Assembly (NCBI GenBank): GCA_039000685.1
Contig: JAWBNW010000002.1
Span: forward strand, 1 to 35,997
Reading direction: 5' to 3'
Length of the DNA stretch: 35,997 nt
Source of the DNA: Candidatus Aenigmatarchaeota archaeon
GTDB taxonomy: Archaea; Aenigmatarchaeota; Aenigmatarchaeia; CG10238-14; SCSR01
Shown here one piece after another: positions 1,539 through 28,067 of this stretch. The notes under the pieces are model-generated. The model did no database searches and was not told the DNA's origin. It saw nothing but the letters and a program-made list of their open reading frames with translations. Position numbers and translations under genes: made by a program. How positions within the stretch are numbered: position 1 is the stretch's first letter; each line of letters begins with the position of its first letter.

Positions 1539-2285
1539 GTGATTCACATGAAAAGCCTAATTTTAATTTTTATTTTGCTGTTCGCAGCAATAGCTTTCTT
1601 GAATTTTTTCACGACCAATTTTGGAAAGGTCAAGACAGAAGTACTAATTCCCAGCTTCGGAGAAAAAACTATTTCTGAAAGCAATGTTATTAAATTGCCT
1701 GTGCCTGCTGTAGACGAAGAAGGAAATGGTGTTTTAACAACACTGATAGTAGAAGCTGCTCCTGGTAAAGGGAGAGTTCTCACTGACATAAATCACTTGC
1801 TATTCTTCATTGACACTCAAAATTCTATTCAAATAGCAAAAGCTGTTGCCCAAAATATTACAGGTATAGATATTTCAAAGACCGATTTGATTTATCAGAT
1901 AGAAACCAATGCTTCAGCAATTGGTGGGCCTTCGGCTGGAGCTGCTTTGACGGTAGCAACTATAGCAGCTTTGGAAAATAAAACTTTAAATCAAAAAGTT
2001 GGAATAACTGGAACTATAAATCCAGATGGCTCCATAGGACCAGTTGGTGGGATAGAAGAAAAGGCTAAAGCTGCAAAAGAAGCGGGAATAGAAATTTTCT
2101 TGGTTCCAGAAGGGCAAGGAACTCAAGTGAGCTACACACCAAAAAGGGAATGCAGAAAGATTGGACCAATTTTGTATTGTACAACCGAATATCTGATAAA
2201 AAAAGTTGATGTGAGTGAAAGCGTTGGTATTCAAGTGAAAGAAGTGGGCAACATTCAAGAAGCATTAAAATACTTTTTGGAGTAA
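1539..2285 (+). CDS. membrane-anchored Lon-like S16 serine protease (proteolytic domain only)
   Basis: N-terminal TM segment, then the Lon C-terminal proteolytic domain signature: GGPSAGAALTVATIAAL (catalytic Ser) and GITGTINPDGSIGPVGGIEEKAKAAKEAG (catalytic Lys region). Confidence 0.75.
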   Translation: MIHMKSLILIFILLFAAIAFLNFFTTNFGKVKTEVLIPSFGEKTISESNVIKLPVPAVDEEGNGVLTTLIVEAAPGKGRVLTDINHLLFFIDTQNSIQIAKAVAQNITGIDISKTDLIYQIETNASAIGGPSAGAALTVATIAALENKTLNQKVGITGTINPDGSIGPVGGIEEKAKAAKEAGIEIFLVPEGQGTQVSYTPKRECRKIGPILYCTTEYLIKKVDVSESVGIQVKEVGNIQEALKYFLE

Positions 2286-2855
2286 ATGATTATCATGAAA
2301 CTTCAAGAACTTTTCACGAAAGAGGAAGTGAGGGATTTGGCTGTTTCAACCATAGCTATTTCTCTCATCTTTGCTTTCCCAAGATTTGAATTCTTTTTCT
2401 TCTATTTGATTGCTGTTGTCTTTGCTTTTGTTTTTCATGAGCTTGCTCACAAGTTTGTTGCCATGAAGTTCCATTGTGCAGCTTCTTATGAAATGTGGCC
2501 TCTTGGTTTGGGAATGGGTTTTTTGTTCATGTTGTTTGGGATAAAAATACTTGCTCCTGGGGCAGTGATAATAAGGCCTTACAGGTTTGGGAGATGGGGA
2601 TTTAGAGTTACTAGGCTTACCGTGCCTGAAAACGGAATTATATCCTTAGCTGGTCCTGTTGTGAATTTAGCTTTTGCTTTAATCTTCTATCCTTTCCCTG
2701 CCTTGAGCTTCATCTCTGATGTAAATGCCTGGCTTGCTTTTTTCAATCTTTTACCAATTCCTCCTTTAGACGGAAGTAAAGTGATAAGATGGAAACCGTG
2801 GGTTTGGTTGCTTTTTATCATCACAGCTTTTATTTTGATGTCAAGGTTCTTTTAA
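2286..2855 (+). CDS. M50-family (site-2 protease-like) membrane metalloprotease
   Basis: HELAHKF (HExxH) inside a TM segment plus the downstream FNLLPIPPLDGSKV motif. Multi-pass hydrophobic protein. The start abuts the upstream stop codon. Confidence 0.75.
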   Translation: MIIMKLQELFTKEEVRDLAVSTIAISLIFAFPRFEFFFFYLIAVVFAFVFHELAHKFVAMKFHCAASYEMWPLGLGMGFLFMLFGIKILAPGAVIIRPYRFGRWGFRVTRLTVPENGIISLAGPVVNLAFALIFYPFPALSFISDVNAWLAFFNLLPIPPLDGSKVIRWKPWVWLLFIITAFILMSRFF

Positions 2856-5225: not shown

Positions 5226-6758
5226 TGTCTTCTTAGCCAATTCTTTATACTTTATTGTATCTTTTTTAATTTTACTTGATAAAAACTTCCATTCTTTTTC
5301 TATCTCCTCTAATGGTTTATTACCAGAATTGAGCACTAACTTACTTTTCTTAATTTTTTCTTCATGTCTAAGTGGCAATAATTTTAACAATTTTTTCACT
5401 TCACCTTTCCTTCCTATTCTCAGATTCCACACAATTCTTTCCCCGAAATGATCTTTGTTTATTTTTCCTTGAAATAAAAGAGGTTTAAATCCTCTATTCA
5501 GAAAACCTTTTGCTACATCATTTAGCAATTCGAAATCTGTCGATGTGATATTTATCCAAAATCTTAAGTAGTTATTATAAATGCCCAAAGCAACGGTTCC
5601 TTCAGAATCTATAAGACCTGCTACAAAATTTAAAAACAATTCCTTATTCAAAAGTATTTCTGAAGGTACTTTATTTAATTTCTCTACCAAGAAAGAAAAA
5701 GATCTGTCTAAATAAGCCGAAATCCTCCATGCGTATTCTCCTTTTCTGTTTTCAAATGGGTACTTCCTGATGAAACCAAAATTTCCAAACAACTTGTTCA
5801 TTAATATTTCCCATGCTGGATGAGTTGTACTAACATCACAAATAACTCTCTTATCATCAATAAGGGCGTGTAAGTCTCCACATCTTAACCCTAGTAGATA
5901 ACACTTAAATTTTGTCATTTCTCTGCTATCTTCTATAAATGGTCTTTTTGGATATTTTGTAAGAGCATCTGAAATACTTCTTCTTGGAATGTTGTATTTT
6001 TCTAATCGCTTTCTAATTTTAGCACCACTTAAATCAAAAAGTAAACCTATTTCCCTTGAACTTAATTTACATTCCAAGTATAGATGCTCCAGAACTTCTT
6101 TGGGGATTTCTTCCGAACTTATAGCTAATCCTAATGATTTTCTCTTTTTAAATTTGTTATAAATTTCATTCACGATTTTACGAATTTTTGGCTTAACTTT
6201 CTTTAAGAGAAGATTCCTCTCTTTTTGATCAACAACTCTTTTCTGAATACTCCTTCGTGTCTTTATTTTAAATTTTTTAAGTAAGTTTTCAATAGTTTTT
6301 CTATTAACTTCAAACAAAATGCCAATTTTAGAAGCGCTTAATTTATTTTCTATGTATAATTTCTTAAGCAATTGGAAAGGAATGTTTACTTTTTTAGGTT
6401 TAATTTCTTTCTTGCATTTTTCAATTTCTAACCGTAAGCTACGAGGTAATAATCTTAAAAGGAATTGTCTGCTTGGATTTCTTCTGGGAGGAGCCGCCTC
6501 ATGAAGACTACTTTTTCTAATGTTAAGTTTTGAAAACCATTTATAAATCGTGTCATAATCTTTTTCAAATAACGAAGCTATTTTTCTTAAACTTAATTTA
6601 TAGTTCCAATAAAGTTTTTTCAATATTTCTTTGAGCTTCTCTTTATCGTTCTTAGTTAATTTTGAGAATTTTTTGCCTTTTAAATGCTCATAAAACCCTT
6701 TAACCATTCTCTGGACTTCACGTGGTAACGTGTCCAAAATTTTATTTTTCTCTTCCAT
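5211..6758 (-). CDS. free-standing LAGLIDADG endonuclease-like protein with three tandem N-terminal HTH modules
   Basis: Three ~65-aa repeats of LYxxxKLSxRxIxxLFxxxxxTIxxxxxKxxIxxRRS, then the LAGLIDADG motifs YLLGLRCGDLH and FVAGLIDSEGTV. Confidence 0.75.
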   Translation of the reverse strand: MEEKNKILDTLPREVQRMVKGFYEHLKGKKFSKLTKNDKEKLKEILKKLYWNYKLSLRKIASLFEKDYDTIYKWFSKLNIRKSSLHEAAPPRRNPSRQFLLRLLPRSLRLEIEKCKKEIKPKKVNIPFQLLKKLYIENKLSASKIGILFEVNRKTIENLLKKFKIKTRRSIQKRVVDQKERNLLLKKVKPKIRKIVNEIYNKFKKRKSLGLAISSEEIPKEVLEHLYLECKLSSREIGLLFDLSGAKIRKRLEKYNIPRRSISDALTKYPKRPFIEDSREMTKFKCYLLGLRCGDLHALIDDKRVICDVSTTHPAWEILMNKLFGNFGFIRKYPFENRKGEYAWRISAYLDRSFSFLVEKLNKVPSEILLNKELFLNFVAGLIDSEGTVALGIYNNYLRFWINITSTDFELLNDVAKGFLNRGFKPLLFQGKINKDHFGERIVWNLRIGRKGEVKKLLKLLPLRHEEKIKKSKLVLNSGNKPLEEIEKEWKFLSSKIKKDTIKYKELAKKTLKFS

Positions 6759-9876: not shown

Positions 9877-10443
9877 TTATGGTGTCAGTCGCTTGATCTC
9901 ATAATAAGTGCAATCGTTCTCCCTATCAACAACTGCCCAGACGAAAGTTGCCCTTATGTTGTGAGCAAGCCTTACAGCTCTAGACATTTCGGGTAGAGAA
10001 AAAGCTGATTCTTCTGGAACTGCATGAACCACAAACTTTGTGTGCTCATGAGGGGCTTTCGGGCCTCTCACAAGCTTTACCCCTCTCTCATAAACCCTGA
10101 AATGGGCACCAAACTTAAAACCGGTTTTCACGAGATAGCCTCTTTCCCTCAAATCACGATAAACCACAAACTGTGGGTGGAATTGATTGATGTTTTTTGT
10201 GGCTATCTCTAATAGCTCTTTCAGGTCTATATTCCTCTTTTTACTATCTTCTTTTACGAAAATTTTGATTTTTCCTTTTTCTAAAAGGTAGGCTGCTTCC
10301 ACCAACTCTAACTCAAGCCTTTGAGGATTTTCCTCTGGAACAGGCTTGCCAAAACCAGAATCATCATAAAGTCTAACAGAATCTCTATCCCAAATTATCA
10401 CTCTGTCCTCTATCAACTCTCCTTCCCAAATCTTCTCCATCAT
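9877..10443 (-). CDS. endA: tRNA-splicing endonuclease EndA (single-unit, ~188 aa)
   Basis: VVYRDLRERGYLVKTGFKFGAHFRVYERG...HEHTKFVVHAV, the catalytic Tyr/His/Lys region of archaeal EndA. Its size matches the one-unit (homotetramer-type) enzymes. Confidence 0.9.
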   Translation of the reverse strand: MMEKIWEGELIEDRVIIWDRDSVRLYDDSGFGKPVPEENPQRLELELVEAAYLLEKGKIKIFVKEDSKKRNIDLKELLEIATKNINQFHPQFVVYRDLRERGYLVKTGFKFGAHFRVYERGVKLVRGPKAPHEHTKFVVHAVPEESAFSLPEMSRAVRLAHNIRATFVWAVVDRENDCTYYEIKRLTP

Positions 10444-16104: not shown

Positions 16105-16196
16105 GCCTCGTTAGCTCAACGGTAGAGCATCCGAAGAGCTTAGCTCTGGTGAACCTTGTAAGCGGAGGGTTGTGGGTTCAAATCCCACACGAGGCT
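16105..16196 (+). tRNA. tRNA-Thr (UGU) with an intron at 30/31
   Basis: After removing 20 nt: GCCTCGT TA GCTC AACGGTA GAGC A TCCGC CTTGTAA GCGGA GGGTT GTGGG TTCAAAT CCCAC ACGAGGC T (72 nt). Confidence 0.85.
16134..16153 (+). other. tRNA-Thr intron (20 nt, inside the anticodon stem, 30/31), canonical hBHBh'
   Basis: GAG-CATC-[CG|A]-AGAGC-TTA-GCTCT-GGTG-[AA|C]-CTT: H helix CATC/GGTG (one G.U pair) with 3-nt bulges. Confidence 0.8.
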
Positions 16197-16197
16197 C

Positions 16198-17241
16198 TTA
16201 TTTTTGAAGAAAATCGACATCAAACCAACTAGCAATTTTTGTTAAATTGAAATTCTTGATTAAAGAAAAAGTTATTGGTGAAGAGAAATTGGAAAAAATC
16301 CATTTAAAGATTAAGCCTTTTCTGATTGGCCATATCAGCCTTTCTTTCCATTTTTTATCATAATTTTCAAGCAAAAATTTTTTAGAAAAATCTTTTGCTT
16401 CTAAAGCTTTGATGATTGCTTCGCTTGCAATTTCTGAGCAAATTTTGTTGTAAACTAGACCCCCACCAGAAAAAGGCTTAATTTGACAAGCAGAGTCTCC
16501 AACCAAAAGCACATTATCTACAACTGAACTTTCAATTATTCCATATCTTAGAAAATCTCCAATTTTATTATAGGCCTTGACTCTTCCGAATCTTTCCATC
16601 AAGAATTTTTCCAAGTATTTGTTGGGGTTTTCTTTTGTTAATAGGCCTACTCTTGCAATTCTTTCACTCTCAGGAACAACCCAAGCAAAACCTAAAGGAG
16701 CAATTTTTGAACCAAAATGAAGTTCAACTGTCTTAGCATCAAAGTTTGATTTTACCTTAACTTGTAAAGCAAATAACAAATTTTCCGGTTGTTTTATTTT
16801 AGCTTTCTTGGCAACAGTTGAATTTGGTCCATCTGCCCCAACTAAAATCTTTGTTTGAAATTTTCCTTTGGTTGTAAAGATTGTTTTACCTTTTAAATCT
16901 AGGAATCTTGTTGATGTCTTGATTTCGGCTCCCACTTTCTCAGCATTTTTTGCAAGCCAGCTGTCATATTTTTTTCTGTCTAAAACAAGCATCGGTTCTT
17001 TTGAATTAACTTCAAAAAATTCTTTGCCACAAAAAAATCTTGCCTTCCTAATTTTGTTCAAAGTTATATTTTTTGGAATTTTACCAATTCTCCTGCTAAC
17101 TAAGCCTGTACATTGAACGGGCTCTCCTATTCTTTGGTGTTCCTCCAAAATCAGGACATTAAATCCTTTTTTGGCAACAATTTTGGCTGTTATACAGCCT
17201 GCAGGACCAGCACCAACTACAATACAATCAAAAAGAGTCAT
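16198..17241 (-). CDS. geranylgeranyl reductase family flavoprotein (archaeal lipid saturation)
   Basis: N-terminal DCIVVGAGPAGC FAD motif, LEEH, GADG and LVGDSA motifs. 347 aa. Confidence 0.8.
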   Translation of the reverse strand: MTLFDCIVVGAGPAGCITAKIVAKKGFNVLILEEHQRIGEPVQCTGLVSRRIGKIPKNITLNKIRKARFFCGKEFFEVNSKEPMLVLDRKKYDSWLAKNAEKVGAEIKTSTRFLDLKGKTIFTTKGKFQTKILVGADGPNSTVAKKAKIKQPENLLFALQVKVKSNFDAKTVELHFGSKIAPLGFAWVVPESERIARVGLLTKENPNKYLEKFLMERFGRVKAYNKIGDFLRYGIIESSVVDNVLLVGDSACQIKPFSGGGLVYNKICSEIASEAIIKALEAKDFSKKFLLENYDKKWKERLIWPIRKGLIFKWIFSNFSSPITFSLIKNFNLTKIASWFDVDFLQK

Positions 17242-18562
17242 CCAACAACCTCTGAAGTTTGTTTATTACTTCGGTTTCTGAAAATAGTTTGACTGGAGAA
17301 TTTATACCCTCCACCCAAACTTTAACTGTAGAATAAGGTAATTTGAATCTTTTAGAAATTTCTTTTATAGATTTTCCCTTTTCAAATTCTTTTTTTACCT
17401 CTAAAAATAGAGCATTTCTATATTTACTTCTTTTGATTCTGTTTTTGACGATCCTTAATGTTCTTATAAATTCCTTTTTCCTATCATCTGAAAAATTAGG
17501 AACAAATCTGAAGAACTTGATATAGTTTTCAGCACTACAAGATACGTAGAAGTAAGATTTACTTACCAATTTACCATCTTTGTTCCTTATGTATGATTCT
17601 TTGGACCACTTAACTGCAGTTGATTTTATACCAAATTGGCCAAGCAGCTTTCGGATTTCATTCATAAAATTCTCTTGTTCTTTTTTGAGTTCTAAAACCT
17701 TGCTTAATTGAAAACATAAATAAAAACTTCTTTTTGACCAAATTGGTTTTGTTCCATCTGCAGACCATAAGACACCAAGAAAAATTGACTTTAATTCATC
17801 GGGTAATTTAAAAACCCATTGAGGAATTTTTATAGCCTGAACAATTTTGTCTCCCTTTGGTGCTCCTGCTGCATAAAGAAGCCTTGAAATAGCAGCATTA
17901 TTAATAATAAGATAGTTAGCTCTACCTTTTATAATTCTATCTTGAAATACACCTTCTGTCTCCTTTGTTTTTAATTTACATTTTAATGAAGGTAATTCCA
18001 ATTTTATTTCTTTCATTAATAATTGAAGTGTTTTTCTATCTCCAGCCAATGTAATTTGTGTTAAATTATTGCCCAAATTACCATCTCCAAAAATCCATGC
18101 TAATATTTTCAAAAATAATTTAAACTTTGAATTATTCTTAGAAATTAGAGGAAGTAATCCTAACTTTGTCAGTGTAATTACACACCTAATAGCCCTTGGA
18201 GTAGTTTTAGATGACCAATTACTTACAGTTTGTTTAGGAATTTTTAATTTGATAGCTATATCTTTTAATTTTACTCCTTGCTTCCTCATTTTTTTAGCAG
18301 CAATATAATTGAAAGCTAGCCCCTGTTCTTTCTTATTGTAAGTTCTTATTATATCTTCAAATGTTACTATTGCGTCTTCATTCGTTTCAAAAAAATCTTC
18401 TTCATCTTTCCAGCTTTTACCTTGGAATCTTAAGCCTAGTTTTCTAGCCTTCTTTTGAACGCTATAATAACTTCTATTTAAAATTTTAGAAAGCTTAATT
18501 ACACCAAACTTTTCATAGTTATTTTTCAATAGCGTAATTTCTTCTTCTTTCCATTTCCTCAT
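17228..18562 (-). CDS. free-standing LAGLIDADG endonuclease-like protein with Myb/SANT-like and HTH modules
   Basis: N-terminal WKEEEITLL..., HTH IPKQTVSNWSSKTTP, LAGLIDADG motifs LAWIFGDGNL and FLGVLWSADGTK, and C-terminal HTH IKEISKRFKLPYSTVKVWVEG. Confidence 0.75.
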   Translation of the reverse strand: MRKWKEEEITLLKNNYEKFGVIKLSKILNRSYYSVQKKARKLGLRFQGKSWKDEEDFFETNEDAIVTFEDIIRTYNKKEQGLAFNYIAAKKMRKQGVKLKDIAIKLKIPKQTVSNWSSKTTPRAIRCVITLTKLGLLPLISKNNSKFKLFLKILAWIFGDGNLGNNLTQITLAGDRKTLQLLMKEIKLELPSLKCKLKTKETEGVFQDRIIKGRANYLIINNAAISRLLYAAGAPKGDKIVQAIKIPQWVFKLPDELKSIFLGVLWSADGTKPIWSKRSFYLCFQLSKVLELKKEQENFMNEIRKLLGQFGIKSTAVKWSKESYIRNKDGKLVSKSYFYVSCSAENYIKFFRFVPNFSDDRKKEFIRTLRIVKNRIKRSKYRNALFLEVKKEFEKGKSIKEISKRFKLPYSTVKVWVEGINSPVKLFSETEVINKLQRLLDDSF

Positions 18563-18606
18563 AAATTAATCTTGATGAGTAATGATATTTACTATTTCGG
18601 GACTTC

Positions 18607-18621
18607 ATTTCCGATGTTTCC
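18607..18621 (-). promoter_or_regulatory. GGAAACATCGGAAAT motif upstream of LAGLIDADG gene 17228..18562
   Basis: A direct GGAAA repeat 44 nt upstream of the ATG. A near-identical copy lies upstream of the paralog at 20720..20734. Both are followed by AAATAT and CTCAT. Confidence 0.35.
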
Positions 18622-18636
18622 AAAACCTAAGAGAAC

Positions 18637-19394
18637 TTATCTTCCAAACCTACGTTGCCTTCGATTAAACTCTTTTATACACCAAATTAAATCCCTTTTT
18701 GTAAAATCGGGCCAAAACTTGGGAAGAAATATTAATTCTGCATAAGCTGCTTGCCATAAGAGAAAATTAGAAAGTCTTTTCTCCCCTCCTGTACGAATTA
18801 AACAATCTATGGGAGCTGGAACAAGTAAGTTAGCTTCTATATCTTTTTCTGTTATCTCTATTCTTCCAAGCTTAATTGCCTTTTCTGCGATTTTCTTTAT
18901 TGCTTGCGTTAATTCAAACTTGCTTCCATAAGCAATCATTATGTTTAAAACCCTTTTCTGATATTTTGCAGTTTTTTGCATTATTTTTCCCATAAGTTTA
19001 ACGAGTTTTGGAGGCAATCTTTCCAAATCACCAACAAACCTTACCTTGACTTGATATTTGTCTAAAAAGCTTCCTTCTTTCTTTTCCCATCTTTCGAAGT
19101 ATTCATAAAATAATTTGAAAATTTCTTCCAGCTCTTTTTTTGGTCTATTCAAATTTTCTGTTGATAACACATAGGCTGAGACTTGTGGTATTCCAAGCTC
19201 TAAACACCACTGCAAAAAGTTTTCGAAATTTTTTATGCTTGTGGGCTTGTCGCCCAACAATTTGCACCGTATTTATGGCCTTCCCACGGCTGAAGACCAT
19301 GTAGCTTGGCCCACCTTCTGTCTATGGGATTTAAGCCTTTATAGGCTCAAATCTTTCCATCAAGTATTATTCCTAGATGATTTGGAACATTCAA
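18637..19394 (-). CDS. uppS: cis-prenyltransferase (undecaprenyl/polyprenyl diphosphate synthase), three exons joined by removal of two BHB mini-introns
   Basis: Exons are 19394..19355, 19321..19262 and 19232..18637, totalling 696 nt = 231 aa. The spliced N-terminus is MNVPNHLGIILDGNRRWAKLHGLQPWEGHKYGAKNFENFLQWCLELGI...STENLNRP...RTGGEKRLSNFLLWQAAYAEL...RRFG. TTG start preceded by the GGGGTGAT SD. Unspliced, the gene has a TGA and then a frameshift. Confidence 0.75.
19233..19261 (-). other. uppS intron B (29 nt, frame-shifting), BHB
   Basis: GTGC-[AA|A]-TTGT(T)GGGC-GACAA-GCCCACAA-GCAT-[AA|A]: H helix GTGC/GCAT with 3-nt AAA bulges. The boundary can slide within the A runs without changing the product. 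Confidence 0.7.
19322..19354 (-). other. uppS intron A (33 nt, contains an in-frame TGA), canonical hBHBh'
   Basis: (TTG)-ATGG-[AA|A]-GATTTGAGCCT-ATAA-AGGCTTAAATC-CCAT-[AG|A]-(CAG): H helix ATGG/CCAT and an 11-bp inner hairpin. Confidence 0.75.
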
Positions 19395-19398
19395 CTAT

Positions 19399-19406
19399 AT
19401 CACCCC
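19399..19406 (-). promoter_or_regulatory. Shine-Dalgarno for uppS
   Basis: GGGGTGAT lies 4 nt upstream of the TTG start. AT-rich TATA-like sequence sits further upstream. Confidence 0.4.
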
Positions 19407-19442
19407 ATATTTTAATTTTAAATAATGATTAAAATTTAAAAA

Positions 19443-20675
19443 TTAGCATGTAATTTCCTTAAGAAATGGAAACCTTTGTGTTAATAAATCCCAATCCTTT
19501 GGTAGTAGATTAAGCTTAACTGACTGAATAGCTATGTAAGCAGGTTTTTTAAACCAAGATTTAATAGTAGATCTAGGAAATCCTGTAATAATACTAATCT
19601 GGTTGGAAGTATAATTTTTAACTCGTAATCTTAGAACATTCCAATAATCTTCAGCAGAATATCTGTATTTCTTTTTATTTTTAATTATTTTATCAAGAGC
19701 GTATTCCTTCCTTTTTATAGTAAAACCAATTTCTTTCCTAAAAATTTCAAGATAATTAGAAAAACTAAATCTAATTTTATATAATTTTCTACCTTTCTTT
19801 GCAAGTTCTATTTTTGTAAAAATCCCGAACTTTGATAACAAAAATCTTATATCTTCTAATCCATTCTTGTTAGAAGAAGTTGCCTCGATTGCTCTATTAG
19901 AAATATCAACACTCCCTTCTGAATCAAAAAACCCTTTCAAGAAAGATGAAATTATAAGTTTATCATTATTTTTAATTATTTCTTGGGGAACTCTCCACAC
20001 ATACGAATTAAATTCACCGTACCTCTTTAAATCTTCATAAACCTTTTTTCTTTGTAAATAAACAATATATTGTCGTTTACATTTAGAAAGTCCAGAAGGA
20101 GTTATTCTGATACCGGGTGGTATATTACACTCTTTTGCAATAATACCATAAACATTTTTTATTTTATTTTTAAATTCATCGGCAAACTCTTTATCAGTAA
20201 CTCTTAACCCTAAGAAGTAATTAAAGTATTTATAACCTTTGTATTTTACCAACTTCCGATAGAGCATACCATCCCCACAAAGAACGCCAAGAATATAGGC
20301 TTTTGCTGGAGTTAATGTTTTATAATTTTTGTTTGGAATTTCTAATGGAGTTTTTCTATATCTATTTCTATCCCTAGGAATCTGAAATTTTTTCATTTGT
20401 TTAAAAATATAAGTTGTAGAGCAACCAAAAACTTTTGCTATTTCTTGAAGTGAAAGTCCTTTTTTGTAATAAAGTTCATATAATTTATTTCTCTCGAATT
20501 TTGGTAATCTCAAATCATTCTTTCTTATTTTTAAATTCTTATAGAGTTTCCACTCAATACTATCTTTTGATCTATTTAACCTTCTAGCTATTTCTTCATT
20601 TGATAGACGTTCTTTAGCATATTTTACCAATAAATTGATTTCAGTTTTATTCCATCTTCTTCCCATATCTATCAC
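19443..20675 (-). CDS. free-standing LAGLIDADG endonuclease-like protein with Myb/SANT-like and HTH modules
   Basis: WNKTEINLL..., HTH module LYELYYKKGLSLQEIAKVFGCSTTYIFKQMKKFQIPRDR, LAGLIDADG motifs AYILGVLCGDGML and FLKGFFDSEGSV, and C-terminal HTH ITGFPRSTIKSWFKK. 20675 is a GTG; the ATG at 20666 (MGRRWNK) is the likelier start. Confidence 0.75.
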   Translation of the reverse strand: MIDMGRRWNKTEINLLVKYAKERLSNEEIARRLNRSKDSIEWKLYKNLKIRKNDLRLPKFERNKLYELYYKKGLSLQEIAKVFGCSTTYIFKQMKKFQIPRDRNRYRKTPLEIPNKNYKTLTPAKAYILGVLCGDGMLYRKLVKYKGYKYFNYFLGLRVTDKEFADEFKNKIKNVYGIIAKECNIPPGIRITPSGLSKCKRQYIVYLQRKKVYEDLKRYGEFNSYVWRVPQEIIKNNDKLIISSFLKGFFDSEGSVDISNRAIEATSSNKNGLEDIRFLLSKFGIFTKIELAKKGRKLYKIRFSFSNYLEIFRKEIGFTIKRKEYALDKIIKNKKKYRYSAEDYWNVLRLRVKNYTSNQISIITGFPRSTIKSWFKKPAYIAIQSVKLNLLPKDWDLLTQRFPFLKEITC

Positions 20676-20719
20676 TTTCAGATATGAGCAAACACAATAT
20701 ATTTGTTTTTTTGAAGCAG

Positions 20720-20734
20720 ATTTCCGTTGTTTCC
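20720..20734 (-). promoter_or_regulatory. GGAAACAACGGAAAT motif upstream of LAGLIDADG gene 19443..20666
   Basis: Second copy of the motif at 18607..18621, 53 nt upstream of the ATG. Confidence 0.35.
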
Positions 20735-20787
20735 GATAAATTTTAAAATTATGATTTCCTATACTGAAGTATAAAAAAATTAAATAT

Positions 20788-20890
20788 GGGGTCGTCGTCT
20801 AACCAGGCAGGACAGCAGGCTCCAGTTTCATGGAGCTCGGATAAAAGATGAAGAAACCTGTATGTGGGGGTTCAAATCCCCTCGACCCCA
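20788..20890 (+). tRNA. tRNA-Trp (CCA) with a ~30-nt intron in the anticodon loop region
   Basis: GGGGTCG TC GTCT AACCAGGCA GGAC A GCAGG CTCCAG[intron]A CCTGT ATGT GGGGG TTCAAAT CCCCT CGACCCC A. All allowed intron placements give the anticodon CCA. Confidence 0.8.
20826..20855 (+). other. tRNA-Trp intron (30 nt; boundaries uncertain by up to 2 nt)
   Basis: At the canonical 37/38 placement the H helix would be CTCC/GAAG with a C.A mismatch. The strongest helix is TTCAT/ATGAA (20827-31 / 20848-52). This is a relaxed rather than strict BHB. Confidence 0.5.
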
Positions 20891-20920
20891 CTTGATTTTA
20901 CTTTTTAAATTATCAAAAAA

Positions 20921-21905: not shown

Positions 21906-22577
21906 TTATTTTTCTATCAATTCAACAAAAACAACAGGCCCAAGATTTTTCTTTTTAATTTTTCCATTTTTTGCTTTCTCCAAACAAATCAAATCTTGCT
22001 CATAAGTTGGTCCTAAGGGTGTGACTAAAATTCCTCCAGGTTTAAGCTGATCGATCCAAGCTTTCGGTATTCTTTCTCTTGGAGCTGCACTCGAAACTAT
22101 TTTGTCGTAAGGAGCAAATTCTGGTAAACCTTTTGAACCATCTCCCAGTACAAGCTTAACTTTATTCCAATAACCAGTTTTTTTCAAATTCTTCTTGGCA
22201 AATTCATAAGTCTCAGGGATTATTTCTATACCATAAACTTCTCCCCTTTCTCCAACAATTTCTTTCATATAAGCCAATAAGATTCCAGAGCCAGCACCGA
22301 TTTCAAGAACCTTATCACCTGGCTTGAGTTTTAAGGCAGAAAGGAAGATGGCGTGCATTTCCCCAACCTCTTAGGTGATATGGGGTGCAGATATGGTAAC
22401 ACCACCTGGGATTGGTAATGGCATATCAATGTAAGCATCCTGTTTATTTTCTGGGGGGACAAAATCCTCTCTCTTTACCTTTAACATTACGTTTTCTACA
22501 TTTTTGGATGTTATACAACCTGCTCTCACTAAACTTCCTATAACTTCTTCTCTTTGTTTTTTGAGTTCTTCTCTCAT
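21906..22577 (-). CDS. pcm: protein-L-isoaspartate O-methyltransferase, two exons joined by removal of a 21-nt BHB intron
   Basis: Exon 1 is 22577..22380 (66 codons, ending ...GGVTISAPH). Exon 2 is 22358..21906 (MHAIFLSALKLKPGDKVLEIGAGSG...). The spliced protein is 216 aa and its junction recreates TISAPHMHA. A GGAGGTG SD lies upstream. Confidence 0.8.
22359..22379 (-). other. pcm intron (21 nt, in-frame TAA), BHB
   Basis: TGCA-CCCC-[AT|A]-TC-ACC-TAAGA-GGT-T-GGGG-[AA|A]-TGCA: outer helix TGCA/TGCA, H helix CCCC/GGGG, 3-nt bulges and a weak inner stem. Confidence 0.75.
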
Positions 22578-23856
22578 CCAACACCTCCTCTACATGTTTA
22601 TATGATAATCCTCGAGATGCTTCTAAAACTCTCCGAGGAACAATACCATGAACCCAAGAAATCAATAACCAATGTTTTGGTATCTTTGATTTCTTATTTA
22701 ATCTAATTAGGTAATTCTCAGATGATAAGCCGTGGGTAGTATCACGATTACCGAACAAGATATATTTAATTTTTTCTTTGTGTTTAAAATAAGGTAAAAT
22801 ATCGTAACAAAACTTAACTGAATCGTCTACATTTGTTATTCCAGTCTTGAATGCAGAATGGTGATGTGTAGGACCATAGGGATTATAACCCAGATTTTTA
22901 AGTAGATTGTTTACATCCTTTACTGCCTTGAAACTTGCAGAAACTATGTGAAAATCTGGAAGATCTAATTTCTTAAAACCAAAACTCCCTTCTGATTCAA
23001 AAATTTTTGAAACCAATTGTAACTTTTCTTCTCTGTTTTTAGCTCTCTCTATTTCATTGAAATCGATGTTATAACTTTTAAAACCTAGAGAGAGTTTGTA
23101 TTTGAGACAAAGAATTTGCCTTAATGGTGCAGAAAAAATTTTTACATCTATTGAATTTGGTTTATCACATCTAGTTCCCACATGAATGTTTGATCGAGGC
23201 ACATAAAAATTTTTAATTATTTTTTCAACAATATTTCGTAATGAATCTTTGCCCTCTTTATTTTGAACTAAATTTATTTCCGTACTAGATATGCCTATAT
23301 ATCCTTCTGCCTTTAGCCAAGCTATAATTTCTCTTGTTTCATTTGTTTCTTTATTTACGAATAGGATACTATCATTTTTACTTTTTCCGCTAGCATAAAG
23401 TCTTTCTCCATTGATAATTTCCCAAAAGTTTAAATTTAATATTTGACATGCCTTAATGATAGCAGTTAAAGGTATCTTTGCTCTACCTGCAAGCCAACTA
23501 TCCACTGATTGTCTTGTCCTATCAACTAACTTAGAAAAACTGTCTTTGTATGAAAATGGGAGTTTTTTCATTGCTCTTTCTATTAAAATAATAAATTTCT
23601 TTTTGCTGGCTAAGTAAACTGGATTAAAACACACTCTTGGCATGAACGTTTTGCCACTTTGTATTTTTCTTTTTACTATAGCACCATCAAGACAAAACCA
23701 AAGATACTGTGAATAAATTGATTTTAGTGGGTTTTTTAGATTAATTTTGCATGCATTTTCAACCACACTTAGAGGTACCCATTCAGAATTACAATTTGTA
23801 TTCGCTAATCTAAGTGTTTCTTTAACTTTTTCATTGATTTGTACTTCATAATACAT
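22444..23856 (-). CDS. free-standing LAGLIDADG endonuclease-like protein with XRE-type and C-terminal HTH modules
   Basis: HTH RQSVDSWLAGRAKIPLTAIIKACQIL, LAGLIDADG motifs IIAWLKAEGYIG and LVSKIFESEGSFG, and C-terminal IPKHWLLISWVHGIVP. The last ~44 codons overlap pcm exon 1 in another frame. Confidence 0.7.
   Translation of the reverse strand: MYYEVQINEKVKETLRLANTNCNSEWVPLSVVENACKINLKNPLKSIYSQYLWFCLDGAIVKRKIQSGKTFMPRVCFNPVYLASKKKFIILIERAMKKLPFSYKDSFSKLVDRTRQSVDSWLAGRAKIPLTAIIKACQILNLNFWEIINGERLYASGKSKNDSILFVNKETNETREIIAWLKAEGYIGISSTEINLVQNKEGKDSLRNIVEKIIKNFYVPRSNIHVGTRCDKPNSIDVKIFSAPLRQILCLKYKLSLGFKSYNIDFNEIERAKNREEKLQLVSKIFESEGSFGFKKLDLPDFHIVSASFKAVKDVNNLLKNLGYNPYGPTHHHSAFKTGITNVDDSVKFCYDILPYFKHKEKIKYILFGNRDTTHGLSSENYLIRLNKKSKIPKHWLLISWVHGIVPRRVLEASRGLSYKHVEEVLDERRTQKTKRRSYRKFSESRLYNIQKCRKRNVKGKERGFCPPRK
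22582..22588 (-). promoter_or_regulatory. Shine-Dalgarno for pcm
   Basis: GGAGGTG lies 4 nt upstream of the ATG at 22577. It is inside the 3' end of the upstream LAGLIDADG ORF. Confidence 0.5.
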
Positions 23857-24081
23857 TCAAATCACTCTTTCTCCAACAATTAGTCTAGCATTCCCACCCG
23901 AGTTTATAATTTCTCTTGCTATAGTTTTCATATTAGCCAAATTCTTTTGATTAAATTGTGCTACCCAATACGAGCCTAGTTCTTGTTTAGCTACAGTCTC
24001 TTTTAACATTCTCCATATTTTTACTCTTTGACTAGACTTATTAAGTGGAATATCAAATGAAAGTACAATTATTTTTTCCAT
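23857..24081 (-). CDS. small alpha/beta protein (74 aa), weak Cas2/PaaX-like beta-alpha-beta signature
   Basis: MEKIIVLSFDIPLNKSSQRVKIWRMLKETVAKQELGSYWVAQ...ARLIVGERVI. Its TGA is directly followed by the ATG of the LAGLIDADG gene. Start moved to the internal ATG at 24081; the upstream part of the ORF is AT-rich promoter-like sequence. Confidence 0.4.
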   Translation of the reverse strand: MEKIIVLSFDIPLNKSSQRVKIWRMLKETVAKQELGSYWVAQFNQKNLANMKTIAREIINSGGNARLIVGERVI

Positions 24082-24215
24082 GTTATATATATAACATAAA
24101 TAAAAATAAAGATTCGTATTGTTATACATAGACAGAATTACTACAGATGAAATGATCTCTTTTCTCTGTGTATCCAACTCCACATTTAATATTTGTAAAA
24201 AAATAAATTCATTTT

Positions 24216-25034
24216 ATGCAAACTCCTGCACAAATTGTTAAAAAGATAAAATCTGTGAAAGTCCAGGGAGCAAAAGAAATAGCTCTTTATTCTCTAAAAT
24301 ATTTGAGAAAATTTTGTGAAAAAAATGGGTTTGGACTGAAATTTGAAGTTGTCGCAATGATGCTTGAAAATGCTAGACCAACTGCAGTTGTTTTACACAA
24401 CTGCTTAGAAATTTTGAAGAAAAAAAGAAAGATTAAAACAATCGATAAACTTATAAAAGAGCTGGAAGATTCGAGCAAAAAGATTGTAATAATCGGACAA
24501 AAAATCATAAGAGATGGGCAAAAAATTTTAACTCATTGCCACTCTGGAAAAGCTTTAGGAATAATAAAAGAAGCTGCAAGGCATGGAAAAAAAATATCTG
24601 TTTATGCAACTATAACAGAGCCTTTGAAGCAAGGCATAAGAACAGCAAAGGAACTAGCAAAGGAAAAGATTCCTGTAACTTTGGCAGAAGATATAGCTGT
24701 AGGCCATTTAATGCATTGCGCTGATATTGTTATTGTTGGTTCTGATGCTATGAGGAAAGAAGGTTTTGTTAACAAAGTTGGTACTTGGCTTATAGCAGAA
24801 GAAGCTAAAAGACACAAAAAACCTTTTTATGTTGTTGGTAGTCATTTTAAGTTTGATTCGAGGAAAAAATTGGTTTTAGAAGAGAGACCTGCTTCAGAAA
24901 TTCTACCAAAACCAATAAAAGGAGTTAAAATAAGAAATCCTGCTTTTGATCTCGTGCCTTGGAATTATGTTACTGCTGTTATCACAGACAAAGGAATTTT
25001 TAAACCAGAAAAGATTAAGGAGATGATAAGATGA
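24216..25034 (+). CDS. e2b2: ribose-1,5-bisphosphate isomerase (eIF-2B alpha/beta/delta-like, e2b2)
   Basis: eIF-2B-related fold: ILTHCHSG, TEPLKQG, VIVGSDAM and NKVGT. Its stop overlaps the rbcL start (ATGA). Confidence 0.75.
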   Translation: MQTPAQIVKKIKSVKVQGAKEIALYSLKYLRKFCEKNGFGLKFEVVAMMLENARPTAVVLHNCLEILKKKRKIKTIDKLIKELEDSSKKIVIIGQKIIRDGQKILTHCHSGKALGIIKEAARHGKKISVYATITEPLKQGIRTAKELAKEKIPVTLAEDIAVGHLMHCADIVIVGSDAMRKEGFVNKVGTWLIAEEAKRHKKPFYVVGSHFKFDSRKKLVLEERPASEILPKPIKGVKIRNPAFDLVPWNYVTAVITDKGIFKPEKIKEMIR

Positions 25035-26254
25035 AGTATTTGGACTATGTTGACTTGAAGTATGAGCCAAGAAAAGATGATATAGTTTGTCTTTTTAGAG
25101 TTGAGCCTGAAGAAGGAATCGAGCTAAAGGAAGCTGCAGGTGCTGTTGCAGCCGAAAGCAGCATAGGTACTTGGACTGAAACCACAACTACAAAACCTTA
25201 TGTTGAAAATCTTGCAGCGAGAGTTTTTGAAATGAATGGAAATTTAATAAAAGTAGCTTATCCTTTCGAGCTTTTTGAACCAGGAAACTTGCCAAACATT
25301 TTGAGCAGCATATCTGGAAATATTTTTGGTATGAAGCATTTGAAAAACTTGAGGCTTCTTGATGTCGTCTTTCCTGAAAAGATTTTGAAAAGTTTTAAAG
25401 GTCCAAAGTACGGAATAGGTGGAATAAGAAAAATTTTTAAAGTAAAAGATAGGCCTTTGGTAGGGACTATAATTAAACCAAAAGTTGGTCTTAAGAGCAA
25501 AGACCATGCAAAAGTTGCTTATGAGGCTTGGGTTGGAGGTTGTGATATTGTGAAAGATGATGAAAACTTGAGCAATCAAAAATTCAACAAGTTTGAAGAA
25601 AGGTTGGAAAAAACTTTCAAGATGAAAGAAAAAGCTGAAAAAGAAACTGGAGAAAAGAAAGCTTATATGATAAACATAACAGCTGAAACAGAAGAAATGT
25701 TAAGAAGAGCAAAGCTTGTTGAGAAAATTGGTAATGAATATGTGATGGTTGATATCATAACAGTTGGCTGGGCTTCCTTACAAACTCTAAGGAAAAAAGA
25801 ATTCGATTTGGTGCTTCATGCTCATAGAGCTGGACATGCAGCGATGACGAAAAATCCAAAGCACGGAATTTCCATGAAAGTTTTGGCCAAGCTTGTAAGA
25901 ATGATCGGTTTAGATCAACTTCATGTTGGAACAGTTGTTGGAAAGATGTTTGAAGGAAAAGAAGAAGTTTTGGAAAATTGTAAGGTTTTGAAAGAAAAAA
26001 TGGGGAAGTTTAAGCCAATGATGCCTGTAGCTTCTGGTGGTCTTTCACCATTTCATGTGCCAAAAATAATCGAAATTTTTGGAAAAGATGTGGTAATTCA
26101 AGCAGGAGGTGGAATTCACGGCCATAAACTTGGAACAAGAAGCGGAGCAATTGCCATGAGACAAGCGATTGAAGCTGTAGAAAAAGGAATTGCCTTGGAA
26201 GAATATGCAGCAACTCACAAAGAGCTTAAGATTGCTTTGGAGGAATTGAAATGA
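25031..26254 (+). CDS. rbcL: RuBisCO large subunit, form III
   Basis: GTIIKPKVGL, GGCDIVKDDENL (the Lys that is carbamylated), LHAHRAGHAA, SGG and GGGIHGH. 407 aa. No small subunit or PRK gene nearby. Confidence 0.9.
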   Translation: MKYLDYVDLKYEPRKDDIVCLFRVEPEEGIELKEAAGAVAAESSIGTWTETTTTKPYVENLAARVFEMNGNLIKVAYPFELFEPGNLPNILSSISGNIFGMKHLKNLRLLDVVFPEKILKSFKGPKYGIGGIRKIFKVKDRPLVGTIIKPKVGLKSKDHAKVAYEAWVGGCDIVKDDENLSNQKFNKFEERLEKTFKMKEKAEKETGEKKAYMINITAETEEMLRRAKLVEKIGNEYVMVDIITVGWASLQTLRKKEFDLVLHAHRAGHAAMTKNPKHGISMKVLAKLVRMIGLDQLHVGTVVGKMFEGKEEVLENCKVLKEKMGKFKPMMPVASGGLSPFHVPKIIEIFGKDVVIQAGGGIHGHKLGTRSGAIAMRQAIEAVEKGIALEEYAATHKELKIALEELK

Positions 26255-26526
26255 TGAAAATTTTTTCAATTTTACTGTTTTTTGGAATAGCTTTTTCCAT
26301 TATCGCTTTTCACGAGTTAACAAGAAACATTTGTATTTTTGACTCAGAATGTGAATGGAAAATAACAAACTGTTGTTCTGAAAATGCTGGAGCTAAGTGG
26401 GAGTGTGTGAACAAGAAAACTTTTGTTGAACCGGAATGTCCGAAATATGTGATATGCCCAAGAATTTTATCTCCAAAACCAAATTTATCTTGTAAGTGTG
26501 AAGAAGGAAAGTGTGTGATAAGATGA
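26251..26526 (+). CDS. small secreted/membrane-anchored Cys-rich protein (91 aa, 10 Cys)
   Basis: N-terminal hydrophobic segment, then a Cys-rich domain. ATGA overlaps with rbcL upstream and deoA downstream. Confidence 0.5.
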   Translation: MMKIFSILLFFGIAFSIIAFHELTRNICIFDSECEWKITNCCSENAGAKWECVNKKTFVEPECPKYVICPRILSPKPNLSCKCEEGKCVIR

Positions 26527-28067
26527 TGTTCAAAGCAAAAATTTTGGAGCTTGAGACTGGCGGCAAGCCTATAGTTGTGATTAATAAAGAAGATGCCGAA
26601 GAGCTTGGAATAAGAGGTTTATCTAGAATTGTGATTAAAACTGAAGAGAAGAAGATAACTGGAATAGTGAACATGACCACAAAAATTGTTAACCAAGGAG
26701 AAATTGGGCTGAGTGAAAGTGTGGCCAAAACTTTGAACTTAGTTGGTGGAGAAGAGGTGGAAGTTGAAGTTGCAAGATTTCCTTCTTCCTTACAACACAT
26801 TAAAAACAAGCTCAAAGGCAAAAAACTAAACTATGAAGAAATTTTTGAGATAGTGAAAGATGCTGTTGAAGGAAATTTAAGTGAAGGTGAAATAGCTTCT
26901 TTTGTTGCCGCCTTGGAAACTAAAGGCTTGGACCTGGATGAAGCTGCTAGCTTGTCTTTAGCAATGGTTGAGACAGGAAGGAAGCTTGAACTCAAGAAGA
27001 AAATTATAGTTGATAAACATAGCATTGGTGGAATAGCTGGAGATAAGACCACTCTGCTTGTGGTGCCAATAGTTGCTGCTGCTGGTTTAGCTATACCAAA
27101 AACTTCTTCCAGAGCAATAACTGGAGCTGCTGGCACTGCTGATAGAGCCGAGGCTCTGATGCCTGTCAATTTGAGTATAGAAGAGATGAAGAAAGTTGTG
27201 GAAAAAACTAATGGGTGCATAGCATGGGGAGGTGCTCTGCATCTAGCCCCAGCTGATGATATCTTTATTCAAGCAGAATATCCTTTAACTATAGATCCTT
27301 TGCTCTTGCCTTCGATCATGGCAAAGAAAAAAGCAGTTGGGTCAAAGTTTTTGGTTGTAGACATACCAACAGGGAGAGGAGCGAAGACAAAAACCATAGG
27401 AGATGCAAACTTGCTTGCAAAAGATTTCATCGAGCTTGGAGCAAGACTTGGAATAAAAACTCATTGTGCTATAACAGATGGTGAGCAGCCTGTTGGGTAT
27501 GTGATTGGCCCTGCTTTGGAAGCAAGGGAAGCCCTAGAAGTTTTGATGAGAAGAAAGAATGTTCAAGATCTTGTAGACAAAACTGCTCATTTGGCTGGAA
27601 TTTTGTTTGAGATGATTGGGAAGAAAAATGGATACAAACTTGCTCTTGAAATTTTGAATTCTGGAAAAGCTGAAAAAAAGATGAGGGAAATTATTGCGGC
27701 CCAAGGTGGAAATGAAAAAATAATTCCTGAGCAAATACAAGTTGGTGAAAATAAGCTTGATATAGTTGCTGAAAGAGATGGGATAGTTCTCTGGCTAAAC
27801 AATGCTGGAATAAATGAGGTTGCAAGGGCGGCTGGTTCACCAAAGGATAGGGGAGCGGGTGTTTTGCTTCACAAAAAATTGAATGATAAAGTTGCTAAAG
27901 GAGAAAGATTGTTAACAATATATGCTGAAAAGTCTAGAAAGCTGGAAAGGGTAAAAGAAGTTTTTGAGGAAGGTAATGTGATTGGAATAGGGGATAGAAG
28001 AGAGATGTTAATCCAACAAGTAAAAGAAATTCCACTACATAAAAAGACTTTCATCCTCGAGAGATAA
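26523..28067 (+). CDS. deoA: AMP phosphorylase (thymidine phosphorylase family)
   Basis: The N-terminal extra domain (MMFKAKILELETGGKPIVVINKEDAEELG) is typical of archaeal AMP phosphorylase. Also HSIGGIAGDKTT and TSSRAITGAAGTAD motifs. Confidence 0.85.
   Translation: MMFKAKILELETGGKPIVVINKEDAEELGIRGLSRIVIKTEEKKITGIVNMTTKIVNQGEIGLSESVAKTLNLVGGEEVEVEVARFPSSLQHIKNKLKGKKLNYEEIFEIVKDAVEGNLSEGEIASFVAALETKGLDLDEAASLSLAMVETGRKLELKKKIIVDKHSIGGIAGDKTTLLVVPIVAAAGLAIPKTSSRAITGAAGTADRAEALMPVNLSIEEMKKVVEKTNGCIAWGGALHLAPADDIFIQAEYPLTIDPLLLPSIMAKKKAVGSKFLVVDIPTGRGAKTKTIGDANLLAKDFIELGARLGIKTHCAITDGEQPVGYVIGPALEAREALEVLMRRKNVQDLVDKTAHLAGILFEMIGKKNGYKLALEILNSGKAEKKMREIIAAQGGNEKIIPEQIQVGENKLDIVAERDGIVLWLNNAGINEVARAAGSPKDRGAGVLLHKKLNDKVAKGERLLTIYAEKSRKLERVKEVFEEGNVIGIGDRREMLIQQVKEIPLHKKTFILER

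Follow-up and report, generated by a model that had tools for sequence, protein, structure and literature searches.

Why does a stretch of archaeal DNA carry pcm, the gene for protein-L-isoaspartate methyltransferase (PIMT), as two open reading frames (ORFs) that share strand and frame and are separated by a stop codon? The question arises for 35,997 nt of contig JAWBNW010000002.1 (assembly GCA_039000685.1), assigned to a Candidatus Aenigmatarchaeota archaeon and archaeal by its match to signal recognition particle (SRP) RNA; this whole stretch is referred to as the window. An initial annotation had ascribed the split to a 21-nt intron of the bulge-helix-bulge (BHB) type. Based on the comparisons reported here, we suggest that the pcm insert is probably a mini-intron with a relaxed BHB or bulge-helix-loop (BHL) motif, excised by the tRNA-splicing machinery. 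Coordinates of all features are collected in Table 1.

An insert within pcm and its counterparts in related loci

Read on the minus strand, the interrupted region runs ...ATA TCT GCA CCC CAT / ATC ACC TAA GAG GTT GGG GAA / ATG CAC GCC..., with the slashes delimiting the insert. An ORF of 68 aa (22371..22577, ending ...GGVTISAPHIT at the stop) is followed in the same frame by one of 150 aa (21906..22358, starting MHAIFLS), and deletion of positions 22359..22379 yields a 216-aa PIMT in which the SAPHMHA motif is unbroken. The spliced product matched the Pfam family PCMT (PF01135) from position 2 to position 207 of the 210-position profile (E = 6.4e-64), and a full-length match, comprising the SAPH(M) pre-motif as well as the GxGxG S-adenosylmethionine (SAM)-binding motif, was obtained only with the 21 nt removed. 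It aligned without gaps over the junction to solved PIMTs from archaea, fly and human, the human structure 1i1n reading TISAPHMHAY at this place, and the nearest PIMTs are uninterrupted proteins from Candidatus Aenigmatarchaeota metagenome-assembled genomes (MAGs), with 80-82% identity to the spliced product. In nucleotide comparisons, the insert is a clean 21-nt indel relative to the intron-less loci L003 and L005. The initial annotation had placed the insert and its in-frame TAA at these positions, had seen the junction recreate a PIMT signature also present in human PCMT1, had called the product one of normal PIMT length and had proposed looking for uninterrupted alleles; all of this was borne out.

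The predicted junction reads ...GCACCCCAU/AUGCAC... in the spliced mRNA, that is GCA CCC CAU/AUG CAC in codons, and ...GGVTISAPHMHAIFLSALK in the peptide. Since intron and exon 2 both start with A, the boundary could slide by 1 nt, leaving the product unaltered. The window's 150-aa exon-2 ORF had no record in the contig index, and the exact spliced proteins of 10 alleles were absent from a collection of 15 billion proteins, an absence that carries no information either way.

The same pcm codon boundary is interrupted by an insert of 12-28 nt in at least 25 related loci, drawn from other metagenomes and MAGs; together with the window, the set comprises L001, L009, L014-L023, L025-L029, L031-L035 and L037-L040. 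Some of these were found via protein homology alone. Among them are L001 (JGI 3300035198), with a 14-nt insert AATTGATTGGGGAA, and the GTDB MAG contig L009 (JAWCEU010000037.1), likewise with 14 nt, AGTTGAACGGGGAA; also by protein homology alone, protein fragments of exon-2 size led to L034 (12 nt), L035 (22 nt), L037 (ENA ERZ27248180; 23 nt), L038 (28 nt), L039 (12 nt) and L040 (21 nt). Scanning metagenome contigs for a DNA pattern gave 20 loci; at 18 of them, a PIMT gene carries an insert of 12-22 nt at the site. Split genes also contribute visibly to protein collections, as about 17 of the best 120 exon-2 homologues (approximately 14%) are fragmentary, with a length near 150 aa, and 10 of these begin with MHAI.

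Both exons are otherwise intact in every insert locus, down to 52% protein identity. Between intron-bearing alleles, the ratio of nonsynonymous to synonymous substitution rates (dN/dS) is 0.04-0.17 per exon, with dS of 0.8-1.7 for most pairs, indicating purifying selection. Among the inserts, lengths that are multiples of 3 are not favoured; the 3' end is an invariant G[G/A]GGAA, and the sequence and length of the loop vary. Short inserts (12-16 nt) have no inner helix, i.e. they are of the BHL form, and inserts of 21-28 nt have unrelated inner hairpins. Close relatives without the insert exist as well, and because insert-bearing and insert-less relatives are interleaved, the pcm intron appears to have been gained or lost repeatedly.

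One of the insert loci, L035 (GCA_054386315.1, JBQSHO010000254.1), belongs to a MAG labelled Candidatus Heimdallarchaeota. Its pcm, split with the CCU/GAGG combination, lies in the gene order IF-2B - pcm - uppS - GGR, which is that of Aenigmatarchaeota-type loci, and the contig may be mis-binned.

RNA structure around the insert and a conserved in-frame stop

In the pcm pre-mRNA, the bulges AUA and AAA lie on opposite strands with 4 bp between them, as in standard BHB geometry. The unconstrained minimum free energy (MFE) fold of the local RNA includes the outer helix, the central helix and the bulges, and adds one A-U pair to the central helix. A cut past the second base of each bulge gives exactly the junction demanded by homology, and the same is true of the other alleles and of two inserts in the gene uppS, discussed below. 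Within the intron, nucleotides 22376-22373 pair with 22369-22366 (ACCU/AGGU). Because this inner stem is offset by a small internal loop, the motif is relaxed (BHL-like). The initial annotation had read the outer TGCA/TGCA and central CCCC/GGGG helices, the bulges ATA and AAA and the cleavage position as we find them; it had also described the motif as clean and the intron as minimal, with an inner stem of ACC/GGT only. The stem is present, as ACCU/AGGU, and "clean" overstates an inner helix that is offset by a UC/U loop.

Among arbitrary (start, length) pairs in the window, the central helix occurred in register in 2.5%, the central helix together with an outer helix of at least 3 bp in 0.17%, and the strict form seen in pcm (no G·U pairs, outer helix of at least 4 bp) in 0.02%. 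A generic scanner, which looked for the BHB register and for removal joining two open frames, served for base-rate estimates only; it was dropped as a finder of further introns, with hundreds of matches on both strands. A longer exon-exon helix, AGGUGGUGU/ACGCCAUCU, suggested by the MFE fold of the window allele, was likewise discarded, being not conserved (71% of cells paired, no compensatory change).

Conservation of the helices was assessed exclusively on the nine alleles found by protein homology, independently of any DNA pattern. A 15-allele alignment from the pattern scan was set aside as a covariation test; it displayed no core covariation, its helices having been fixed by the search pattern. 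The 7-bp core, consisting of GCA/UGC and the central helix, is paired in all nine alleles, the fourth outer pair in five, and the MFE fold contains the BHB motif in eight. At the third position of the central helix, five alleles have C-G, one has U·G and three have U-A (CCU with GAGG). The three U-A alleles sit in separate parts of a neighbour-joining tree, and none of the nine combines CCC with GAGG, which would give C·A. These observations provide modest support for a conserved structure with compensatory change. The codons that contribute to the helices behave correspondingly: intron-bearing alleles always read GCA CC[C/U], and intron-less alleles with SAPH read GCT CCT CAC (L041), GCC CCG CAC (L036) or GCT CCT CAT (L010), the intron-less SAEH clade being likewise variable at these codon sites.

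The initial annotation had treated the in-frame stop of the window allele as incidental. It is in fact conserved, as a stop codon occurs in the exon-1 frame of all 16 distinct pcm inserts, usually as the second codon, and in each of the other two frames in 2 of the 16. In six of the 16, the length is a multiple of 3, and without a stop such an insert would add 4-7 residues within the active-site motif. Selection against read-through of unspliced mRNA is one possible origin of the stop.

Inserts in uppS, a candidate endonuclease and competing explanations

Searching with the uninterrupted UppS of L001 (tblastn) revealed that uppS in the window lies in three pieces, its inserts being 2.5 kb from the pcm insert and its junctions falling inside codons. 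Inserts of like architecture in uppS had been part of the initial annotation, and two, of 33 and 29 nt, could be confirmed in BHB register. The first combines a central helix AUGG/CCAU and bulges AAA and AGA with an inner helix GAUUU/AAAUC and an outer helix UUG/CAG; the second is without an adjacent outer helix. Neither exon 2, of 20 codons, nor exon 3 has a start codon. Related loci carry both inserts (L003), the second alone (L002) or none (L001 and L004). At junction 1, the intron-less L002 and L004 read GATGGnAACAGAAG, as predicted, save for one synonymous base of a Gly codon in L004; at junction 2, L004 reads GGTGCAAAAAATTTCGAAAAC, again as predicted. In the insert 2 of L002, the distal stem GGGC/GCCC has changed to GAGAG/CUCUC, a compensatory replacement, and GCAU to GCAC. 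When the window was compared with every fetched locus in gapped nucleotide alignments, uppS insert 2 and the pcm insert were the only intron-like indels in coding sequence; the small indels towards the 3' end of the IF-2B-like gene resemble normal divergence.

Because separate translation and ribosome hopping fail for exons without start codons, removal at the RNA level is, as far as we can judge from these genes, the only simple reading of the uppS inserts. If they are so removed, the same mechanism is the parsimonious one for pcm. In the pathway that we propose, UGCA-CCCC of exon 1 pairs with UGCA of exon 2 and GGGG of the insert, as sequence and folding show, leaving the AUA and AAA bulges. 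EndA, the tRNA-splicing endonuclease of which the window encodes a homologue, would then cut past the second base of each bulge, and a ligase of the RtcB type would join the exons. The joined mRNA would, judging from homology of the product, encode a normal 216-aa PIMT, and unspliced mRNA would stop at the TAA and give a 68-aa fragment only. No RtcB ligase was seen among the window's ORFs scanned against Pfam, a scan confined to the window.

The EndA homologue matches solved EndAs at 2e-33 to 5e-29 (5e-29 for the M. jannaschii enzyme) and has the catalytic Tyr and His. Between these residues it bears, relative to M. jannaschii, a 6-residue basic insertion (GVKLVRGPKAPHEH), and the EndA of ARMAN-2 has an insertion of nearly equal length at the same place. 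The closest 120 homologues, all of Aenigmatarchaeota type, 71-94% identical and mostly of 186-202 aa, share this basic loop, conserved as GVKLxRGPKA ahead of the catalytic His, together with an Ala in place of the catalytic Lys of M. jannaschii. We therefore take the window EndA to be a conserved, lineage-specific enzyme variant, in which a lysine of the loop may replace the missing catalytic one. Loop-bearing EndAs of the alpha4 type are present in DPANN lineages with many disrupted tRNA genes (PMC5829648).

A tRNA gene of the window provides a further indication of splicing activity. The intron of tRNA-Trp(CCA) has a relaxed BHB motif with a central helix CUCC/GAAG, and the gene is missed by ARAGORN without its intron option. 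Because this central helix holds one C·A mismatch, some active enzyme that tolerates imperfect motifs must, by this prediction, exist in the host. For a second tRNA gene, tRNA-Leu(UAG) at 16105-16197 (+), the intron mode of ARAGORN gave a 5-nt "intron" at 29/30, probably an artefact of the long variable arm.

Several points weigh against excision of the pcm insert by the tRNA-splicing machinery. The motif is relaxed, with an offset inner helix in the window allele and none in the alleles of 12-16 nt, and classical alpha4 endonucleases reportedly need a strict BHB (PMC5829648). The 18 alleles derived from the pattern scan are unable to test the helices, since the search pattern fixed them, and the covariation amounts to one pair in three alleles, with 19 of 500 shuffles reaching the observed score. 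The universal stop in the exon-1 frame would not be required by splicing and would fit a split gene equally well; moreover, the exon-2 ATG stands behind a G-rich tract, with GAGGT 7 nt upstream in addition in the window allele, both of which a split gene would need. In the window EndA, Ala stands where M. jannaschii has its catalytic Lys (AHNIRATF vs AHSVRKKL), and the activity of the window protein, plausible as it appears, is assumed. Finally, we infer every step that follows RNA folding, which limits the strength of the proposal.

Alternatively, pcm might be expressed as a split gene, with 68- and 150-aa polypeptides arising from the stop and from re-initiation at the exon-2 ATG through a G-rich ribosome-binding site (RBS), and with the halves assembling into active PIMT. 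We consider this unlikely. Such a gene would account for the stop in the exon-1 frame of 16/16 distinct inserts as compared with 2/16 per other frame, for an exon 2 that always starts with ATG and for the GGGG or GAGG ahead of it (plus the GAGGT of the window allele), and gene callers do annotate two PCMT ORFs. The ATG, however, encodes the conserved Met of SAPHMHA, which unsplit genes have as well, and GGGG or GAGG lies just 2 nt from the ATG, as compared with roughly 3-8 nt upstream for the ends of the Shine-Dalgarno (SD)-like motifs in the window. The covariation of the Pro codon with GGGG/GAGG, the invariant GCA codon and the fixed 3-nt AAA spacing would be left unexplained, the break would lie within the substrate-binding motif of an enzyme that is small and has one domain only, and the alteration is always an added block of 12-28 nt, never a simple nonsense change. 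The uppS inserts are incompatible with this mode of expression, considering an exon 2 of 20 codons without a start, an exon 3 without a start and junctions in codon phase 1.

Ribosomes might also hop over the insert, as they do in phage T4 gene 60, where matched codons, a stop near take-off and a take-off hairpin characterize the hop. In pcm, peptidyl-tRNA-His would leave CAU and land on the CAY three bases past the insert; matched His codons (CAU ... AUG CAY) are present in all alleles, a stop follows soon past the take-off codon, a hairpin is found at the take-off site and a G-rich tract lies 5 nt ahead of the landing codon. Yet the product of such a programmed bypass would lose the Met-His of SAPHMHA that every uninterrupted homologue keeps, the skipped ATG would be free of constraint and is nevertheless invariant in the nine independently found alleles, and at the uppS inserts, which interrupt codons, take-off and landing codons do not match, all of which renders bypass very improbable. 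We give still less credence to a decaying pseudogene or a sequencing or assembly artefact, as which the in-frame stop, the calling of pcm as two ORFs and the mosaic relation of the window to reference MAGs (see below), compatible with a chimeric assembly, could be read. Because independent metagenomes and MAGs supply at least 25 loci with an interruption at this very site, the exons being intact and under selection, we judge the insert to be neither, in line with the initial annotation, which had held random pseudogenisation to be unlikely: no locus has any other defect, dN/dS is 0.04-0.17 in both exons, and the end of the insert is invariant while its loop and length vary.

Excision by the tRNA-splicing machinery thus remains our preferred explanation for the pcm insert. 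Beyond this gene, we find it reasonably likely, with less confidence, that Aenigmatarchaeota-type DPANN archaea possess dynamic mini-introns of 12-33 nt in several protein genes (pcm, uppS), which would be removed by tRNA splicing with an unusual endonuclease, would differ between close strains and could possibly act as a splicing switch, as in HAC1/XBP1. The three proposed introns (one in pcm, two in uppS) lie within 3.2 kb. With an in-frame stop in every pcm intron, expression of the gene would, under such a scheme, be strictly dependent on splicing.

Table 1. Coordinates of pcm, uppS, the RNA motif elements and the genes linked to splicing in the window
Feature	Coordinates	Strand	Description	Basis
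pcm exon 1	22380..22577	-	66 codons, MREELKK...TISAPH	ORF list and translation; Pfam PCMT on spliced product
pcm insert, proposed BHB mini-intron	22359..22379	-	21 nt, ATCACCTAAGAGGTTGGGGAA; in-frame TAA at 22373..22371	
pcm exon 2	21906..22358	-	150 codons and stop, MHAIFLS...ELIEK	ORF, Pfam, structure alignment
Outer helix, 5' strand UGCA	22386..22389	-	in exon 1; partner 22354..22357	
Outer helix, 3' strand UGCA	22354..22357	-	in exon 2; UG of AUG and CA of CAC	
Central 4-bp helix, 5' strand CCCC	22382..22385	-	Pro codon and C of His codon	
Central 4-bp helix, 3' strand GGGG	22361..22364	-	within intron	
5' bulge AUA	22379..22381	-	predicted cut U22380/A22379	BHB rule
3' bulge AAA	22358..22360	-	predicted cut A22359/A22358; AAA invariant in all alleles	BHB rule
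Inner hairpin ACCU-AAG-AGGU	22366..22376	-	inside intron; UC/U loop offsets hairpin from 5' bulge	MFE folds
uppS, whole gene	18637..19394	-	exons 19394..19355, 19321..19262, 19232..18637	tblastn with L001 UppS; Pfam Prenyltransf
uppS insert 1	19322..19354	-	33 nt; canonical hBHBh'; junction DG/NRRW, codon phase 1	
uppS insert 2	19233..19261	-	29 nt; central GUGC/GCAU, bulges AAA/AAA; junction GA/KNF	
EndA homologue (tRNA-splicing endonuclease)	9877..10443	-	188 aa; candidate enzyme	Pfam PF02778 and PF01974
tRNA-Trp(CCA)	20788-20891	+	30-nt intron 20826..20855 at position 37/38	Rfam, ARAGORN with introns, register scan

Relation to known systems and other features of the window

The pre-mRNA intron of cbf5, reportedly treated by Watanabe in 2002 and Yoshinari in 2006, is the closest known parallel to the pcm insert. 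In Crenarchaeota, cbf5 introns measure 16-44 bp, have relaxed BHB motifs and are cut between the second and third bulge bases (Yokobori 2009; PMC2738675). Both elements are short, of BHB type with a relaxed motif and the same cut position, and sit inside a coding sequence, within a catalytic or substrate-binding motif, so that removal is needed for function; both are patchily distributed among relatives and too short for a homing enzyme gene. They differ in the host gene, pcm (and uppS) here as compared with an intron at the catalytic Asp codon of cbf5; in the organisms, Aenigmatarchaeota-type DPANN vs Crenarchaeota; in size, with 12-28 nt and short BHL forms here vs 16-44 bp; and in the enzyme, a single 188-aa alpha-type homologue with basic loop and Ala vs a heterotetramer with a specific loop in Crenarchaeota. 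Splicing of pcm, in addition, is a prediction from sequence. The pcm insert is of the same kind as the cbf5 intron and, because gene, phylum and enzyme type differ, outside the cbf5 intron lineage.

Two other systems share part of these features. In HAC1 and XBP1 mRNAs, IRE1 cuts at stem-loops to release a short structured intron, which measures 26 nt in XBP1, and tRNA ligase or RtcB joins the exons. A short structured intron, a protein endonuclease, a tRNA ligase and altered coding of the mRNA are common to these and to the proposed pcm pathway, whereas the eukaryotic nuclease is IRE1 rather than EndA and the eukaryotic system is stress-regulated. Nanoarchaeum equitans has split protein genes, the halves of which are usually unlinked and each have their own expression signals. 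As in the present case, a DPANN archaeon is concerned and genes are called as two ORFs; unlike the halves in N. equitans, those of pcm are 12-28 nt apart with a conserved RNA motif between them.

Archaeal tRNA introns range from 11 to 175 nt (PMC2738675). The relaxed BHB and BHL introns in tRNAs of Thermoproteales, ARMAN and other DPANN lineages (PMC5829648, PMC3239211) agree with the pcm insert in geometry, size range and presumably enzyme, but the pcm substrate would be an mRNA coding region, its helices consist partly of codons, and splicing would restore a reading frame, not a tRNA fold. In Haloferax volcanii, the HVO_1309 mRNA is processed at BHB sites by the tRNA-splicing endonuclease, as proposed here; that intron, however, lies in the 5' untranslated region (UTR) and leaves the coding sequence uninterrupted, and its processing has been shown in vivo and in vitro, as opposed to the purely sequence-based case for pcm (PMC7714728). 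Papers of 2020 and 2025 still give cbf5 as the sole BHB-interrupted archaeal coding sequence (PMC7714728, PMC12397907), and our search of the literature for BHB introns in protein genes of DPANN or Aenigmatarchaeota found nothing beyond cbf5 and HVO_1309.

If pcm and uppS are spliced as we suggest, mRNA splicing by the tRNA machinery would be no crenarchaeal oddity, as it would also occur in DPANN archaea and in several genes. Intron gain and loss in archaeal protein genes would become directly testable, given close relatives with and without the introns, and gene callers would be systematically mis-annotating such genes as two fragments. A natural minimal substrate of 12 nt, paired with an atypical endonuclease, would offer a means to study the evolution of substrate range.

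The surroundings of pcm and uppS have further peculiarities. Between the IF-2B-like gene and pcm lies a 470-aa ORF without a Pfam match (22444-24183, -), which overlaps pcm exon 1 by 134 nt and is preceded by a 108-aa ORF in the same frame, with a single TGA between them. L028 shares the 470-aa ORF (79% nucleotide identity), L037 has an analogous ORF of 433 aa that overlaps the pcm start, and most relatives have pcm directly next to the IF-2B-like gene. The window is also unusually rich in genes resembling homing endonucleases, one of them directly upstream of uppS: three free-standing, weakly alike ORFs with helix-turn-helix (HTH) and LAGLIDADG_3 domains lie at 5211-6758, 17228-18562 and 19443-20675 (all -), and a 789-aa ORF at 2856-5225 (+) contains an intein with a LAGLIDADG domain.

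The identity of the window to related loci shifts by segment. The uppS/tRNA-Trp region (17898-20892) is 99.3% identical to L003, pcm (21907-22487) is just 81% identical to the intron-less pcm of the same locus, and the IF-2B/RuBisCO region (24151-27180) is 93.8% identical to L004. Because of these shifts, we regard the window as a mosaic that arose either by recombination between strains or by chimeric assembly.

Three abutting ORFs in the same frame at 1539-5225 had been considered as one interrupted gene and were rejected, as they represent different genes (Lon_C-like, M50 peptidase and the intein-bearing protein). A cluster at 24216-28067 (+) encodes an IF-2B-like protein of the ribose-1,5-bisphosphate isomerase type, a homologue of the RuBisCO large subunit and a protein resembling thymidine/AMP phosphorylases, a trio that we take to be the archaeal AMP-salvage pathway.

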